IMG/VR virus record: IMGVR_UViG_3300025880_000013
DNA from: an uncultured virus (IMG/VR IMGVR_UViG_3300025880_000013)
Lineage: Duplodnaviria > Heunggongvirae > Uroviricota > Caudoviricetes
Strand: one strand, 5' to 3'
DNA length: 20,000 nt
The notes beneath the pieces were generated by a model. It saw nothing but the letters and a program-made list of their open reading frames with translations. It made no database searches and was not told where the DNA came from. Below are positions 11,039-18,049 of this stretch, one piece after another (positions within the stretch are counted from its first letter, which is position 1; every line of letters starts with the position of its first letter). Position numbers and translations under genes: made by a program.

Positions 11039-13567
11039 ATGGCACTAAGTCCTAATTTATTACAATTTAAATCAAGTGGAGTATACCGTTTAGAATTTGA
11101 CAAGTCTCAGACTGCAGATATTAACGTTGAAACACTTAGATTAGTTACAGGTCACTCAAGAAAAGGACCTTATAACACACCAGTTTTAATTTCAAGCGTT
11201 GAAGATTTTACTAACGTATTCGGATCGATTGATAAAAAACTAGAAAAGAAAGGAATGTTCTTCCACAGATCAGCTTTAGAAGCTCTTTCAAGAGGACCAA
11301 TCTTAGCTTTAAACTTAAACAAATTCGACGAAGATGATAAATCATTTTTTGCATCTCCAGTAACTAACGGTTCTGTTGATTCAATCGTAGCAGCTGATGG
11401 ATCTAAAGAATATTCAAAGTTTTTCAATACTGATAAATTCGCAGTACCATCTGATGAAGCAGTTTTAGACGAACTTACAGTAGACTCAGATCACTTATTC
11501 CATTTTGTTAATATCAAACAAAACGGTATCACTGTTATCGTTAGACAAGCACAAGATGTTAAAGAATTTCAAATCATCGCAAGAGAATGGTATGGAGAAG
11601 GTAATGTACCAGAATTCATGAATGACTTTGATTATGTATCAGATTACATGGTTGATGTATTTGTATTCAAAGGAGAATTTGATGCAGCTAAAATGCAAAA
11701 TGATCCAGTATATGGAGAATACTTTAACGAGAATGGATTAAACAAAGAATTATTAGGTCAGTTCGCTAACTTAAGACAAGTTAATTTAGAAGCGCAATAC
11801 ACCGGATCTTTAATCCCAGGATTTAAAGATTTAGAAGGAAGAAGCTTATACATTGAATCAATGATTAACAATGAGGCAAGAAAAACAGGTTTATTCTGTG
11901 CGATTGATGAAGATAAAGTATTAGAAGGAGATGTAGACTTAGTAGGTCACTCGTATGATGCTGATCAAGATTATCAATTACTATCACACACGGTAGGTCA
12001 AACTGTCGTAGCAACCCCAGTAGTATTACCAGACACTAAAACAACAACAGTAGTTGGACCAGTATTAACATTAGATTATGATGCAAACGGAGATTTAACA
12101 GCCGGTTATTTCTTAGCAGGAGCAACCTCTGGAGAATACGTTGAAATCTTATCATCAGTATATGCAGCTGGAGTAACAACAGTAACATGTGACGGCGATA
12201 TTAACGCATCGTACGGCGGTTTAACTGGAGTAGCAGCTACACCTACAGTAACTGCAATATCTTTTGACAAATTTGCGGTTTCTCAATCAAGAGTAATTGC
12301 AGAAGAATTTACAGGAGCTACTTACGCTGCTGCAGGTTCTTTATTTACTTTAACTTATGCAACTGCACCAGATTCTATCAGCATTTCAGCTGGAGATTAT
12401 GTACAAGCAGACGCAGCCGGTAGATTAGCTAAAGTTAAAAGAATTGCTAAAGACGGAAACGTTTATCAAGTATACTGTGATGTTACAGTTCAATCAACAT
12501 GGGCTGGAGAATATGTAAAATCTTTTGAAAATGCATCGTCACACTACAAGACATTCCCATTATCAGGAGCAGTATTAAAAGAACAAACTATCAAATCAGC
12601 ACTAGATGCAGTAAGAGGAGGAACAGGATTACATATCGGATTAATTGATAAAGATTTAATCGACTTTAGATATGTTGTTGATACTTTCACATCTTTCGAT
12701 GCATTAGATGGTTTACAAAATAAATCACAATTAGCAGAATTAGCAAAAGCAAGACAAAATGCATCTGCTATTTTAAATGCACCTACAGTTGCAGATTTTA
12801 AGAAATCAACTAACCCATCGTTCACAAACGCTGACGGAGAATTTAAAGTAGAATACATTGCACAAGGAGGAAACTTAGATAAAAATCCAACAAAAACATA
12901 CTTCCTACCAGGAATCACAGAAGGAGCAAATTACGCATTCTACTACGGACCAGGTTTATTAGTATCAGATAACGGAAAAGATTTAATCGTTCCACCAGCA
13001 GCTAATGTATCAAACAATTTCTTAGACAAATACACAAGCGCTCAACCATGGTCGATCGTTGCAGGTCCAAGAAGAGGAGTTGTAGGAGGATCAGGATTAA
13101 AAGGAGCAGAATATGCTTTTGATAAATCTGATAGAGATGTATTAGAGCCTTTCGGAATCAATCCAATTGTATTCCAAAGAGGAGTAGGTCTTACGATCTT
13201 AGGAAATAAAACGGCACAACAGTCTGTTAAATCAGCGCTTTCTTCAGCTCACGTTAGAGAAGCTCTTATTTACATTCAAGATGGTATCGCAGATATTCTT
13301 AAAGGATACGTATTTGAATTTAACAATACACAAACTAGATTAGAAATCAAAACTTTAGCAGATTCATTTATGGAATCAGTAAAAGCAGACGGTGGAGTTT
13401 ATGAATTCAAAAATGTTATGGATCAATCAAACAACACTGATGACGTAATTGATAACAACTTCGGTATTATAGATACTTATGTTGAGCCAGTTAAAGGATT
13501 AGAAATAGTTGTACATAGAACTACAGTTTTAAATACTGGTGAAATTTCAACAGGGAACTTTAGTTAA
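11039..13567 (+). CDS. Contractile tail sheath protein (T4 gp18-like)
   Basis: SSGVYRLEFD, KGPYNTPVLI..F..VFG, PWSIVAGPRRG, GINPIVF, GNKT, SALSSAHVR, FEFNN, DTYVEP. Confidence 0.95.
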   Translation: MALSPNLLQFKSSGVYRLEFDKSQTADINVETLRLVTGHSRKGPYNTPVLISSVEDFTNVFGSIDKKLEKKGMFFHRSALEALSRGPILALNLNKFDEDDKSFFASPVTNGSVDSIVAADGSKEYSKFFNTDKFAVPSDEAVLDELTVDSDHLFHFVNIKQNGITVIVRQAQDVKEFQIIAREWYGEGNVPEFMNDFDYVSDYMVDVFVFKGEFDAAKMQNDPVYGEYFNENGLNKELLGQFANLRQVNLEAQYTGSLIPGFKDLEGRSLYIESMINNEARKTGLFCAIDEDKVLEGDVDLVGHSYDADQDYQLLSHTVGQTVVATPVVLPDTKTTTVVGPVLTLDYDANGDLTAGYFLAGATSGEYVEILSSVYAAGVTTVTCDGDINASYGGLTGVAATPTVTAISFDKFAVSQSRVIAEEFTGATYAAAGSLFTLTYATAPDSISISAGDYVQADAAGRLAKVKRIAKDGNVYQVYCDVTVQSTWAGEYVKSFENASSHYKTFPLSGAVLKEQTIKSALDAVRGGTGLHIGLIDKDLIDFRYVVDTFTSFDALDGLQNKSQLAELAKARQNASAILNAPTVADFKKSTNPSFTNADGEFKVEYIAQGGNLDKNPTKTYFLPGITEGANYAFYYGPGLLVSDNGKDLIVPPAANVSNNFLDKYTSAQPWSIVAGPRRGVVGGSGLKGAEYAFDKSDRDVLEPFGINPIVFQRGVGLTILGNKTAQQSVKSALSSAHVREALIYIQDGIADILKGYVFEFNNTQTRLEIKTLADSFMESVKADGGVYEFKNVMDQSNNTDDVIDNNFGIIDTYVEPVKGLEIVVHRTTVLNTGEISTGNFS

Positions 13568-13600: not shown

Positions 13601-14155
13601 ATGGCTTTACCACATTATTCACAAGATCAAACTAGCAGAAGCGGTAGACAATTCGAACCAGTTCAAGCGAACTTATTTGAAGTAACGATTTTACCTCCAG
13701 CAGGAGTAGCGGACGCACCGTTAATGATTCAACATGTAAACTCTATTTCAGGTTTAGAATTGTATAAACCAGTTGCTGCAGTTGAGCAAAAATACAAATT
13801 TTCAACACGTTCATTCGCAGGAATGCCAGATGCAACTACATTAGAAGTTGGTATTAATTTCTCATTAAATTTAAACGATGCTAATCAAGCATACCTTTAC
13901 AAAGCAATGAGACAATGGTACAATAACCAGTATGATCCTCAAACAGGACAAATGGGACTTAAAAAAGATTACGTAGGTACTATCGTTGTTGTACAGTTCA
14001 ATAGAGCTGGAGACATTTATAGAACAGTAACTTTAGAAGATTGTTTCATTACTTCTGGTTTACCTTTCACTAACGATTTAAGTTATGAAACTACCGAAGC
14101 CCAGGCTTTAGAAGTTACATGGAGATGTGATACGTTTAAAGAGGTTTTAGCTTAG
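13601..14155 (+). CDS. Tail tube protein (T4 gp19-like)
   Basis: 184 aa directly after sheath; NLFEV, QWY...DPQTG...KDY..TI, LEDCF, LSY, VTWRCD pattern. Confidence 0.88.
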   Translation: MALPHYSQDQTSRSGRQFEPVQANLFEVTILPPAGVADAPLMIQHVNSISGLELYKPVAAVEQKYKFSTRSFAGMPDATTLEVGINFSLNLNDANQAYLYKAMRQWYNNQYDPQTGQMGLKKDYVGTIVVVQFNRAGDIYRTVTLEDCFITSGLPFTNDLSYETTEAQALEVTWRCDTFKEVLA

Positions 14156-14167
14156 TAGATACTTTAT

Positions 14168-14204
14168 AATAGGGGATTCCTGAAAAAAGGTTTCCCCTAT
14201 TTTT
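14168..14204 (+). terminator. Rho-independent terminator after tail tube
   Basis: ATAGGGGA-TT-CCT gaaaaa AGG-TT-TCCCCTAT stem-loop plus T run. Confidence 0.8.
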
Positions 14205-14205
14205 A

Positions 14206-14235
14206 TGAAACAAAAATATAATATGTTGATATAAT
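14206..14235 (+). promoter_or_regulatory. Putative promoter TGAAAC-N18-TATAAT
   Basis: Immediately after the terminator, 8 nt before ATG 14244. Confidence 0.6.
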
Positions 14236-14243
14236 AATAACAA

Positions 14244-14459
14244 ATGGATAAACTGACAAAAAAGTTACAAGTTCTTCTATCTGAAGGTGAAGTAACATCA
14301 ATAAACAGGATTATCTTAAATGAAGCAATTGAAAACGGAGAAAGACCAGTATCGATATCAGCATTCATTAGAGATATAATCCGCAAAGAAATTGATCTGA
14401 AAGCAGATTCAATAGTAGAATGGAATAAAGATAATATTAAGAAACTTAAAAAGAAGTAA
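14244..14459 (+). CDS. Small ribbon-helix-helix-like DNA-binding protein
   Basis: KKLQVLLS strand, a helix, then SISAFIRDII helix typical of RHH/CopG. Confidence 0.55.
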   Translation: MDKLTKKLQVLLSEGEVTSINRIILNEAIENGERPVSISAFIRDIIRKEIDLKADSIVEWNKDNIKKLKKK

Positions 14460-14462
14460 TAA

Positions 14463-15407
14463 ATGAGCGATCAACAGCAAGACGAAGTAAACTTAAACGA
14501 TGCTTATAAAAACATCGTAGAAAATCAAGAAAATCCTAAGCCATCAGATCTAGGATCAGTTAACATGGATAAGTTTAAACAACAGGAAGCACAGGATGCA
14601 GATATTGTTTTAGGTTATCATGCAATTCCAGTTAATTCTTTACCATCAGCTGGTATGTTTTACCCTGAAGGAACTGAATTACATATCAGATCAGCAAAAG
14701 TTGCTGAAATTAGACATTTTTCGACAATGGATGAAAACAATATATTAGATGTTGATGAAAAATTAAACTCTATATTAGAATCATGTACAAGAGTTACTAG
14801 TAATAAAAAAAGAATGTCATATAAAGATCTTCTAGAAGAAGATAGATTCTTTTTAATTCTTTCAATTAGAGATCTAACGTTCCCTGAACCAGAATCTCAA
14901 TTATCAGTAGATCATGTTGATAAAAATGGAGAAACTCATAAAATAGAAATATCTAAAGATAATTTTACATATTTTAAAGTTCCAGAAAATCTAGACAAAT
15001 ATTATGATAGAGAAGAAAGAACTTTCTTAATTGAAACAAAATCTTTTGGAACATTAAAAATGGCTCCACCGACGATTGGTATCATGCAGCGAATGACAGC
15101 ATATATTAAAGACCGTCAAGATAAAAAATTAAAAGTTGATCAATCGGTTTTACAGATTATGCCATATTTAATTTCTGAATGGAGAGGTTTTACTGAAAGT
15201 GAAATTTTCAAATTTGAAATTGAAATGAACAGCTGGTCAAACAAGAAATATAGTTTAATTTATAAATTAGCAGAACAGATGAAGGTTGGTATTAAACCTG
15301 ATATGAATGTGCAAATAGGGGATGATTGGGAGGACGTCCCTATTGGGTTTCGCGACGGAATCAAGTCTCTTTTCATTGTTCAAGATATCACTGGAGAACT
15401 TCTTTAA
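14463..15407 (+). CDS. T4 gp26-like baseplate hub / tail assembly chaperone (G-like)
   Basis: LPSAGMFYP, DLLEEDRFFLILSIRDLTF motifs of gp26-like proteins; lies between tube and tape measure. Confidence 0.65.
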   Translation: MSDQQQDEVNLNDAYKNIVENQENPKPSDLGSVNMDKFKQQEAQDADIVLGYHAIPVNSLPSAGMFYPEGTELHIRSAKVAEIRHFSTMDENNILDVDEKLNSILESCTRVTSNKKRMSYKDLLEEDRFFLILSIRDLTFPEPESQLSVDHVDKNGETHKIEISKDNFTYFKVPENLDKYYDREERTFLIETKSFGTLKMAPPTIGIMQRMTAYIKDRQDKKLKVDQSVLQIMPYLISEWRGFTESEIFKFEIEMNSWSNKKYSLIYKLAEQMKVGIKPDMNVQIGDDWEDVPIGFRDGIKSLFIVQDITGELL

Positions 15408-15624
15408 AACAAAGTTCTATATTTATAAACACTTACATTTGCAACCTAGCGAACTGGAAGCAATGGAGTACTATGAATTTCACTACTTAGTTAAAGATCT
15501 TTTAGAATTTTTACAGAAAGAGAATGACGCAAATTCTGATCAACAAGATCAGACGGGTAAGGCAATGTCAGGTATGAAGATGCCTAATGTAAAAATGCCT
15601 AATATAAAGATGCCAAAGATGTAG
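15322..15624 (+). CDS. T4 gp51-like ORF; possibly expressed as a frameshift extension (GT-like) of the upstream gene
   Basis: SLENFFKTKF...HL..SELEAMEYYE resembles gp51; overlaps the upstream ORF by 86 nt in the +1 frame; start uncertain. Confidence 0.6.
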   Translation: MIGRTSLLGFATESSLFSLFKISLENFFKTKFYIYKHLHLQPSELEAMEYYEFHYLVKDLLEFLQKENDANSDQQDQTGKAMSGMKMPNVKMPNIKMPKM

Positions 15625-15661: not shown

Positions 15662-18049
15662 ATGAAAATTATACTAGGGCCATTACAAAGGCTAGCAATT
15701 TTAATGGAAGAACAGATTGAAGAGACAAAATCTCTTCAATCTGTAATTTCAATAGATCTAAAGAAATCAAGCAAAGATCAGTTAAGTGAGCTTAAAACTC
15801 AAACAGGCCTTTTAGAAGATATTAAAAGTATTTTAAGACAACAGCAGTTCGCTTCTCTTGCACAATCAAAAGGACCAAAGACTGGAATATTAGGAGGTAT
15901 TAAAAGTAAACTTCCAAGCTTTAAAGGAGCAAAAACCGTCGCAGTCGCGGTTGGTTTATTCGCAGGTGCTATATTGGCATCTACTGTTTTCTTTGCACTA
16001 ATGCCTAAGCTTTCTGCGGTAACTTTATTAACTGCAGTTGCGGTAGCTGGAATAATGACTTATGTTGTTCCTAAATTCATGGAACTAACAAAACTATATA
16101 GATTTAAAACAAAAAACATAGTAAGAGCTGCGGCAATATTACCATTAATTTCAATGGCAATACTAGCATCTTCACTCCCATTAGTATTAATGCCAACTTT
16201 AAGCCTAGGCTCTTTAGTTACTGCATTTGTTGTTGGGGCGGCACTTTCAATATTTACACCCTCATTTATAAAATTAGTTCATAATCTAAAGGGTGTAAAA
16301 TTAAAGGATCAAATTAACGCAGTTAAAGCTATGGCGATAATGGCTGGTGGTATTGTTGCAGTATCATTAATATTTGCCTTATTAGGTGCTGTTTCAGGTT
16401 GGGCAGCTCCGCCTTTAATGTGGACTTTACAAGCTGGATTAGCCATGTTCATATTTTCTGCGGCTTTTGTAAACATAGCAAATTCACTTAAAAAATCATC
16501 TACAAAAGATTTACTTTTAGCGTCTACTGCACTGCCACTACTTGCATTAACTATTGTTGGAGTTGCATACATATTTAAATTATTCCCAGCAAAACCTATC
16601 GCACCTGAGTATAATTGGACTCTAAAGGCAGGATTAGCGATGTTATTGTTTTCTTTTGCTTTTACAAAAATATTAAAAGTTATTAAACAAAATTCACTTA
16701 AAGATATTGCATTTGCAGCAATAGGTGTAGGACTTTTAGCAGCCGCTGTTGTTGGTGTTGCGTTTATTTTTCAAGCACTTTCATTCGTTGAAGGCTATGA
16801 AAAATACGCTCCGGATCCAGTATGGGCTCTTAAGTCAGGTCTAGCTATATTGGCGTTTACGGGTAGTTATTTGTTAATATCTTTGGCCGCTAAGAAGATT
16901 GGTTTAAAAGGTCTTGCACTAGGAGCCCTTGCTATGATAGCAGTTGCGGGTTCAATTTTAGCAACCGCATGGATATTTAGTGTTTTACCAAGTGAATTCA
17001 TAGCACCTCCACTGGATTGGTCAATAAATGCAGCGATAGCAATCACTGCCTTTGCAATTCCATTAGCAGTAATTGGCGCTTTAGCGACATTATTAACACC
17101 AGTAGGGCTTTTATTAGGAGCAGCTGGTATTATACTAGTGGCTGGGACAATGTGGGTTGTTGCTTGGATTTTTAGTAAATTACCAGATTTAGGTGAAGCT
17201 TCTAAAATGCTTACTGATGCAATAATGTACCCCATTAATCAAATGATAGGGGCTCTTGTTAGATTTAAGGATGAAATCGGAATTGAAAACATGGTACCTT
17301 TAGCGGGTGGTATTTTAGCAATTGCAGGTTCTTGGTTAACTTTAACCGCAGCCATGGCAGGTCAAGGTATTGGTGGAGCTATTGGTGCAGTTGGTAATGC
17401 AATAGGACAAGGGGTTAATAAAATTGTAGAATTTTTCGGTGGAGAAAAAGCAATGGGACCTAAGGATTTATTAGAACTATTAATAAGCAAAGCAAATAGC
17501 CTTAAAAAGATATCCGGACCTATGTACAATATAGGTAAGGGATTAAGATCAATTGGAACTAGTGCTATAAATGTTTCACTTGCTCTTGGTACATTAAAGC
17601 ATTTTACAGGTGATGATGCTGTTGAAAATCTAGAAAAATCTGCAAAATCAGTTAAAGAATTGGCTAAAGGATATAGTAAAATTGCAAGGTCAACAAACCT
17701 AATGAATATAGATGCTCTTAACGCATCTGCAAACATGTTTAACGCGATCGCTAAAGTAGCAGGATTAAAAGGAGAAGATGCGATAACGAAAATATCTGAA
17801 GAATTAATGAAAGCGGTTAACCAACTTTCTAAAACCGTTGAGAATTTACAAGAAGCTAATGGTGAAAATTCAACCTCAATGCAGGATGCTATTTCATCTA
17901 CAATCGGAGGATTTATTGATAAGATCAAAGGAACGACTGATAAAAGTGGAGGAAACGAATCTGGATTGGTTGATGTTGCACCAATTGTTGCTGCAATCCA
18001 AGAATTAGAAGATAGATTAAACAGGCCTTTAAGAGTTCAAGAAATTTAA
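15662..18049 (+). CDS. Putative tape measure protein, hydrophobic repeat-rich
   Basis: 795 aa Ala/Gly/Leu-rich helical protein after the chaperone-like pair; ~65 aa hydrophobic repeats; coiled-coil ends. Confidence 0.7.
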   Translation: MKIILGPLQRLAILMEEQIEETKSLQSVISIDLKKSSKDQLSELKTQTGLLEDIKSILRQQQFASLAQSKGPKTGILGGIKSKLPSFKGAKTVAVAVGLFAGAILASTVFFALMPKLSAVTLLTAVAVAGIMTYVVPKFMELTKLYRFKTKNIVRAAAILPLISMAILASSLPLVLMPTLSLGSLVTAFVVGAALSIFTPSFIKLVHNLKGVKLKDQINAVKAMAIMAGGIVAVSLIFALLGAVSGWAAPPLMWTLQAGLAMFIFSAAFVNIANSLKKSSTKDLLLASTALPLLALTIVGVAYIFKLFPAKPIAPEYNWTLKAGLAMLLFSFAFTKILKVIKQNSLKDIAFAAIGVGLLAAAVVGVAFIFQALSFVEGYEKYAPDPVWALKSGLAILAFTGSYLLISLAAKKIGLKGLALGALAMIAVAGSILATAWIFSVLPSEFIAPPLDWSINAAIAITAFAIPLAVIGALATLLTPVGLLLGAAGIILVAGTMWVVAWIFSKLPDLGEASKMLTDAIMYPINQMIGALVRFKDEIGIENMVPLAGGILAIAGSWLTLTAAMAGQGIGGAIGAVGNAIGQGVNKIVEFFGGEKAMGPKDLLELLISKANSLKKISGPMYNIGKGLRSIGTSAINVSLALGTLKHFTGDDAVENLEKSAKSVKELAKGYSKIARSTNLMNIDALNASANMFNAIAKVAGLKGEDAITKISEELMKAVNQLSKTVENLQEANGENSTSMQDAISSTIGGFIDKIKGTTDKSGGNESGLVDVAPIVAAIQELEDRLNRPLRVQEI

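Follow-up and report, generated by a model that had tools for sequence, protein, structure and literature searches.

The analysed window, a stretch of 20,000 nucleotides, is part of the AT-rich genome (GC 33%) of a large myophage. Downstream of its tail tube gene lie two overlapping open reading frames, with a 71-aa gene intervening, and the features on which the analysis draws are the following.

11039-13567: tail sheath gene
13601-14155, + strand: tail tube gene (PHROG 45 and 3629, tail tube)
14244-14459, + strand: 71-aa gene between the tube gene and ORF1, kept in relatives, with no family match
14463-15407, + strand: ORF1, predicted short form (G / TAC-N), 314 aa, gp26-like
15329-15333, + strand: GGAGG, a purine element resembling a Shine-Dalgarno (SD) sequence, 14 nt before the slippery codon
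15348-15351, + strand: predicted +1 shift site UUU_C, where the P-site UUU would re-pair on UUC
15349-15624, + strand: +1 frame extension (T / TAC-C), like the gp51 C-terminal part, 91 codons including the re-paired Phe
15351-15353, + strand: A-site codon CGC
15366-15374, + strand: TCT CTT TTC, an alternative -2/+1 site, placed where cyanophages have their -1 heptamer
15402-15407, + strand: CTT TAA with the stop of ORF1, an RF2-like alternative that is not favoured
15662-18049, + strand: hydrophobic protein of 795 aa, period 65 residues, probably the tape measure (a lead)

The 795-aa ORF was placed in the T4_Tape_measure cluster with a score of 0.87, a weak lead below the bar of 0.9, and it received no name from PHROG, Pfam or NCBIfam. 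ORF1 and ORF2 likely stand directly upstream of the tape measure gene, the tape-measure call being itself a lead; against this, a long ORF comes next after the overlapping pair in only 17 of 32 clusters. No tRNA genes were found in the window. Four copies of the motif (A/T)GATATATA are present, all on the + strand (at 189, 11000, 13570 and 15623) and each 30-45 nt before a gene start (the ORF at 231, the sheath gene, the tube gene and the 795-aa ORF); in 13 of 41 clusters GATATATA also stands behind the T stop, in one orientation or the other, and the motif is possibly a late promoter. Between the tube gene and the 71-aa gene, an inverted repeat followed by a T run (14168-14206) looks terminator-like by eye, and is missing from the listing of the hairpin and repeat scan of the window. 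The 382-aa ORF at 231-1379 carries an acidic low-complexity repeat with units like DGNTNT/DDDTNT. Two related loci (L347 and L385) have two tandem tube-like genes upstream of ORF1.

Relatives of ORF1 occur in 31 records among 50,697 annotated phage records, at 24-45% identity, and these comprise Lak, PAU, PTm1/5, pT24, MA9V, MaF61 and uncultured phages of 168-735 kb. Bacteroidota are the hosts of most cultured relatives, and for PAU the recorded host is Sphingomonas; six annotated genomes that carry the pair list two separate unnamed genes. The junction between the two frames was compared in a set that started from 420 sequences (419 loci and the window), with 5 unrelated or cyanophage loci excluded. 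An ORF1 match that included the stop was present in 364 sequences (72 of the 119 loci from the pattern search), and the 356 with sufficient flank were kept, which gave 191 distinct junctions in 46 clusters at 70% identity. The search patterns never included the shift site, and one of them fixed the region of the ORF1 stop. Lak phages recode TAG, and it was treated as sense in the two Lak loci. The null tests count clusters as independent, so that significance is overstated. The protein set held 150 representatives at 50% identity, 14 of which are fragments at the site.

The earlier note on this DNA had described a 314-aa ORF that overlaps a gp51-like ORF in the +1 frame, and this arrangement was recovered, with ORF2 matching PHROG 634 ('baseplate hub assembly catalyst') at E 1e-4. 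The ORF1 protein of the window gave no match to PF12322, which is matched by 47 of 146 ORF1 relatives (best E 7e-10). Its predicted model (pLDDT 90.6) matches predicted gp26/gp51-type hub proteins (E 4e-9, TM about 0.5). When the model was compared with 48,161 solved chains, the top three, and the only ones with a Z of at least 5, were 3FGX (Z 6.2, rmsd 3.8, 89 aligned), 2OB9 (Z 5.8, rmsd 3.6, 79 aligned) and 3KLU (Z 5.2, rmsd 3.3, 76 aligned), and with the C-half alone 3KLU (Z 5.0) and 2OB9 (Z 4.6) again came first; these Z-scores of 4.6-6.2 lie below the tool's bar of 8, and their weight is in the rank. All three structures are called tail assembly chaperones (PMC9603447). Foldseek and sequence searches of the PDB gave no match. 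The modelling supports ORF1 as a gp26-like protein with a tail assembly chaperone fold and, since both of its halves rank solved chaperones first, the fold may be present twice, as a tandem duplication in the gp26 family. A CxxC pair just upstream of the site (about 15300-15330 in the window) is found in most relatives and is lost in the clade of the window; T4 gp26 has CxxC at the corresponding position.

Frame 0 reads ATT GGG TTT CGC at 15342-15353, as the earlier note had it. TTT-C stands at this site in 184 of the 191 junction variants and in 42 of the 46 clusters, including Lak, PAU, pT24 and MaF61, and the codons that follow TTT are CCC (82), CGC (42), CGT (39), CAA (8), CCT (4), CCA (4), CCG (2), CGG (2) and CGA (1). 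The motif UUU_CGN, as first proposed, therefore holds in its UUU_C part, with CGN being found in only 84 variants (CCN in 92, CAA in 8) and representing the choice of the window's clade. Where a cluster has Phe at the site, its codon is TTT in 42 of 43 cases (background 0.67), and an Arg codon after it is CGN in 13 of 13 (background 0.23). Among the protein representatives, Phe is aligned at the site in 124 of 150. In 120 of these the next residue is one of the five whose codons can begin with C (P in 45, R in 41, Q in 24, H in 5 and L in 5; background 0.20), and in the other four it is S, E or K; of the 12 representatives that lack Phe here, nine have it no more than four positions upstream, again followed by a residue of this class. 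The residue class after Phe changes 11 times on a tree of 46 rows, three 'other' rows included. Because five unlike residues can follow Phe, a need at the protein level fails as an explanation, while a need for UUU_C suffices.

The codon preceding TTT is free, with 24 different codons observed (GGN in 19 of 191 variants, TCC in 22), so that a tandem slip is unnecessary, and the re-pairing of GGG on GGT to which the earlier note had drawn attention is incidental. The base at -1 is C in 27 of 46 clusters. In MA9V, TTT CTA is found eight codons downstream, and in PTm1, TTT CAA is found upstream of the usual position, in both cases with the +1 frame open. Seven variants have no TTT-C at the site, and five of these have no relocated copy: L049 (TAC CCC) and the four TTC CCA variants of one cluster (L156, L178, L227 and L252), exceptions in which the +1 overlap is nevertheless kept. 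For the relocated-site protein P0206 no loci were found, and the P0129 query yielded two, both with TTT CGG. In the 20 genes of the window, in-frame TTT is followed by C in 15 of 213 cases against 25.7 expected, one of them inside the T frame, and UUU_C alone is not sufficient for a shift. That CGC is uncommon and Arg mostly AGA was borne out in the same genes (11 and 129 of 189 Arg codons, respectively). Across the genes compared, CCC supplies only 4% of Pro codons, and CGC and CGT only 2% and 14% of Arg codons, but CAA is common (78% of Gln), so that a slow A-site codon may help without being a universal component.

In the window, no stop interrupts the +1 frame between 15319 and the TAG at 15622-15624. 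The conserved +1 phase that the earlier note had named as a test was found: in every one of the 191 junctions, +1 is the frame with the best score for the gp51-like domain; the profile used in this search was made from the 46 cluster representatives, which renders the count partly circular, and independent support for the phase comes from the PHROG 634 match and from the match to cyanophage segments described below. In 130 of 191 variants a stop closes the -1 frame before 30 codons have passed, and a conserved -1 ORF was rejected, as the domain is always in +1. Stops in the +1 frame are frequent upstream, occur as close as codon -2 in 26 variants (15 clusters), and number zero from codon -1 to +44. 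For codons 0-8 in the 46 clusters, none was seen against 14.0 expected with synonymous codons randomised, and the upstream control stretch gave 25 against 25.9 expected. At codon +4, an Ile, Leu or Val codon ends in A before A or G in 0 of 165 cases. Codons +1 to +5 vary like frame-0 coding (entropy 0.40/0.59/1.20 by codon position, 30 clusters), and the +1 pattern of variation is dominant only from codon +6 (0.93/0.49/0.57, 30 clusters), a late onset that would fit a shift further downstream too.

No independent start is conserved for ORF2, again in keeping with what was first suggested. The candidate starts in the window are ATG 15322, TTG 15343 and TTG 15376; by cluster, ATG is present at -9 in 10 of 46, TTG at -2 in 8 of 46 and TTG at +9 in 12 of 46, and in 16 of 191 variants (8 of 46 clusters) no ATG, GTG or TTG precedes the conserved domain. 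The 15-nt leader of ATG 15322 contains 5 A, against 6-12 at 20 other starts, which agrees with the remark that it lacks an A-rich leader. A TTG start 9 nt after GGAGG was considered and rejected, being present in only 21 of 191 variants. In Lak and several other phages the domain begins up to about 40 codons later, past the ORF1 stop, and no stop interrupts the frame between it and the site. Six loci (L040, L041, L046, L357, L374 and L396) carry 20-40 inserted codons in the +1 frame between site and domain, and these run beyond the ORF1 stop without a +1 stop. A complex prediction for the tube protein and the T domain scored 0.00 and weighs neither way.

The GGAGG reported 11 nt before GGG is indeed at that position, and GAGG is found within 33 nt upstream of the site in 40 of 46 clusters as against 81 of 873 control windows from the gene body. 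The distance from GAGG to TTT may be 14, 17 or 20 nt, mostly 17 nt in relatives and 14 nt in the window, and Glu codons at -9 to -5 are GAG in 53 of 61 cases (background 0.21). GAGG is the sole feature that separates the site from the 14 other in-frame TTT-C in the 20 window genes. Known SD stimulators stand 3 nt (for +1 shifts) or 9-14 nt (for -1 shifts) from the slippery site (PMC5009743); the spacing of GAGG matches neither the 3 nt nor, at all well, the 9-14 nt. The ribosomes of Bacteroidia sequester the anti-SD, and in one of them, Flavobacterium johnsoniae, prfB shifts normally without SD pairing (PMC10798248), so that GAGG may act otherwise. The local GC richness mentioned in the earlier note is real, with 0.50 at 15320-15375 against 0.33 for the window, a value reached by 181 of 19,944 segments of 56 nt. 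The small GGGA/TCCC hairpin did not hold up: it is at chance level (z -0.96, in a range of -0.96 to +0.62 for the window folds against shuffles) and is not conserved in 47 aligned junctions. Of 70 clusters at 80% identity, the 47 that have TTT-C at the standard spacing were compared, and six windows around the site gave no consensus fold. A hairpin of 7 pairs that spans the site (15346-15362) was rejected, as it has no common register among relatives.

From the conserved phase and site, the open +1 frame, the absent start and the chaperone-like fold, we infer that one gene very probably gives a short and a long tail chaperone by a +1 slip at UUU-C; that a fusion is made, by one route or another, can be held with high confidence. 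Most ribosomes would terminate at 15407 and produce the 314-aa short form. In a minority, the P-site tRNA-Phe on UUU (15348-15350) would re-pair one base forward on UUC, and these ribosomes would bypass the final 18 residues of ORF1 and continue into the gp51-like domain, for a predicted long form of 386 aa (about 45 kDa) with the junction IGF followed by ATESSLF. The event would be a P-site slippage of low efficiency, aided by a slow C-starting A-site codon and by the upstream GAGG. For PA-X of influenza A virus, P-site slippage on UUU_C was demonstrated by mass spectrometry (PMC3498833). By analogy with lambda, the short form may coat the tape measure and the added domain may recruit the tube protein.

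The strongest rival places the fusion eight codons downstream of TTT-C, at TCT CTT TTC, through either a -2 slip (CUU UUC to CUC UUU, the direction seen in Mu) or a +1 slip on CUU-U. Such a site would keep the G-x-K-S-L-F motif in the long form, occupies the same position as T TTT TTY in 4 of 4 Kyanoviridae loci read, lies about where the +1-type variation sets in and could serve the TTC CCA variants; in the window, moreover, the -2 re-pairing is synonymous for both codons. However, xTT_TTY is intact in only 134 of 191 variants (CTT_TTY in 98) and is broken in 57 that retain TTT-C, and neither the conservation of TTT-C nor the absence of +1 stops upstream is explained by a shift at this place, which we regard as improbable. 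It is very improbable that ORF2 is a separate small protein, with its own start or by re-initiation near the ORF1 stop. The three candidate starts of the window, the ATG at -9 in 42 and the TTG at +9 in 99 of 191 variants, and the short downstream gene annotated in records would suit this reading, but no start position is shared among clusters (10, 8 and 12 of 46), eight clusters have no start at all before the domain, the codon -2 stops block upstream starts in 26 variants, and in T4 gp51 the same domain is fused behind a gp26-like body.

An RF2-like +1 shift at CUU UAA deserves almost no credence. CTT TAA ends ORF1 in 126 of 191 variants and 24 of 46 clusters, figures inflated by a search pattern that contained CTT TAA, and a GGAG stands 5 nt before it; against this, it is missing from the remaining variants, and the coding constraint of the +1 frame starts about 13 codons upstream, where the conserved +1 residues F-S-L-F-x-I-S-L-E-N-F-F themselves dictate CTT TAA. 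The other routes, namely RNA polymerase slippage, a hop from UUU to a downstream Phe codon, or a slip on CCC-N in those relatives that carry CCC, are together quite improbable. CCC-N is a +1-prone codon, CCC follows TTT in 82 of 191 variants, and L049 retains CCC without TTT, but the window carries CGC. Three T are too few for polymerase slippage, and contigs from RNA libraries of a close relative cross the site without an indel (one study, in which contigs drop rare variants, so that those covering the region are uninformative on transcription or rare slippage). A hop would require neither the C nor the open frame.

Slippage at UUU-C can be set beside several known systems, of which the T4-like gp26/gp51 proteins (PF12322) belong to the same protein family, with a short form and a long form that bears the gp51 C-terminal domain. 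In T4, gp26 (208 aa) and gp51 (249 aa), both hub assembly chaperones according to PMC3004832, are separate genes, whereas the window has one overlapping +1 pair. T4 gp51 resembles gp26, and its last 40 residues resemble cyanophage second-frame segments (residues about 203-244, E 2e-4 to 1e-2); these segments in turn match the second frame of the window (E 1e-8 to 7e-7), which compared directly with T4 gp51 gives E 0.2-0.5, not significant. These comparisons, with the matches to solved chaperone folds, support the earlier suggestion that gp26/gp51-like pairs are G/GT equivalents. In the four Kyanoviridae loci (L051-L054: Melnitz, P-TIM40, Syn1 and Mosig), gp51 overlaps gp26 in the -1 frame, with T TTT TTY in the overlap, in contrast to the +1 frame of the window, whose site is 8 codons upstream of the heptamer position; in these loci some conserved residues precede the annotated gp51 start. 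Frameshifting in several T4-like groups, though not in T4, was reportedly described by Vladimirov, Gautam and Davidson (Virology 2022;566:9-15, doi 10.1016/j.virol.2021.11.003). Going by its title, that paper appears to have already put the chaperone identity of T4-like gp26/gp51 in print, and it is cited in PMC12846349 for polyT -1 signals.

Lambda gpG/gpGT (-1), Mu (-2) and haloarchaeal HSTV-2 (likely +1) likewise have an overlapping pair after the tube gene with a start-less second ORF (PMC5009743, PMC3498833), and the fold of the window ORF1 is like HK97 gp13 (2OB9), 3FGX and 3KLU. The direction and signal differ, the lambda-type X_XXY_YYZ heptamer and -1 phase being absent from the window, and the G protein of the window has 314 aa and seemingly a double fold. 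Influenza A PA-X uses the +1 site UCC_UUU_CGU, and UUU_CGN has been predicted in amalgaviruses and others (PMC3498833). The likeness lies in the re-pairing of P-site UUU on UUC (UUU_CGC in the window), and the UUU_C part of the signal is general among the junctions; the CGN A-site codon, present in the window, and the UCC E-site codon are not found clade-wide. Here the ribosome is bacterial, CCN is commoner than CGN, the E-site codon is free and a GAGG is conserved upstream. The bacterial RF2 gene (prfB) shifts +1 at CUU_UGA with an SD 3 nt upstream (PMC5009743, PMC10798248), and shares with the window the direction, the P-site re-pairing and an SD-like element upstream. It differs in that the window has a sense codon in the A-site and GAGG is 14, 17 or 20 nt away, which is not an RF2-type signal.

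The short/long chaperone device is known in phages, so that surprise is limited; what is unusual here is a signal for slipping forward. The literature searched, which covered subscription journals thinly, contained no account of a +1 UUU_C shift in this clade, and the 2022 paper may include one. As a tentative proposal, on balance doubtful in its full form, a clade of large myophages (PAU, pT24, PTm1, Lak relatives and uncultured phages of 460-735 kb) might use an undescribed PA-X-type bacterial +1 shift on UUU_C that requires neither a stop codon nor a fixed hungry codon; it would be driven by a purine element lying 14-17 nt upstream, through a non-SD route, in hosts that largely ignore SD, the chaperone being a tandem double lambda-type fold. 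Apart from this proposal, the very probable slip at UUU-C corrects how a core tail gene is annotated throughout a large clade of phages, and provides a natural, short +1 signal on bacterial ribosomes. Its variants number in the hundreds, and it could be tested in cultured phages with their hosts (Flavobacterium MaF61, Tenacibaculum pT24 and Sphingomonas PAU). One chaperone family thereby reaches its short/long pair by a -1 slip, by a +1 slip or by gene duplication.
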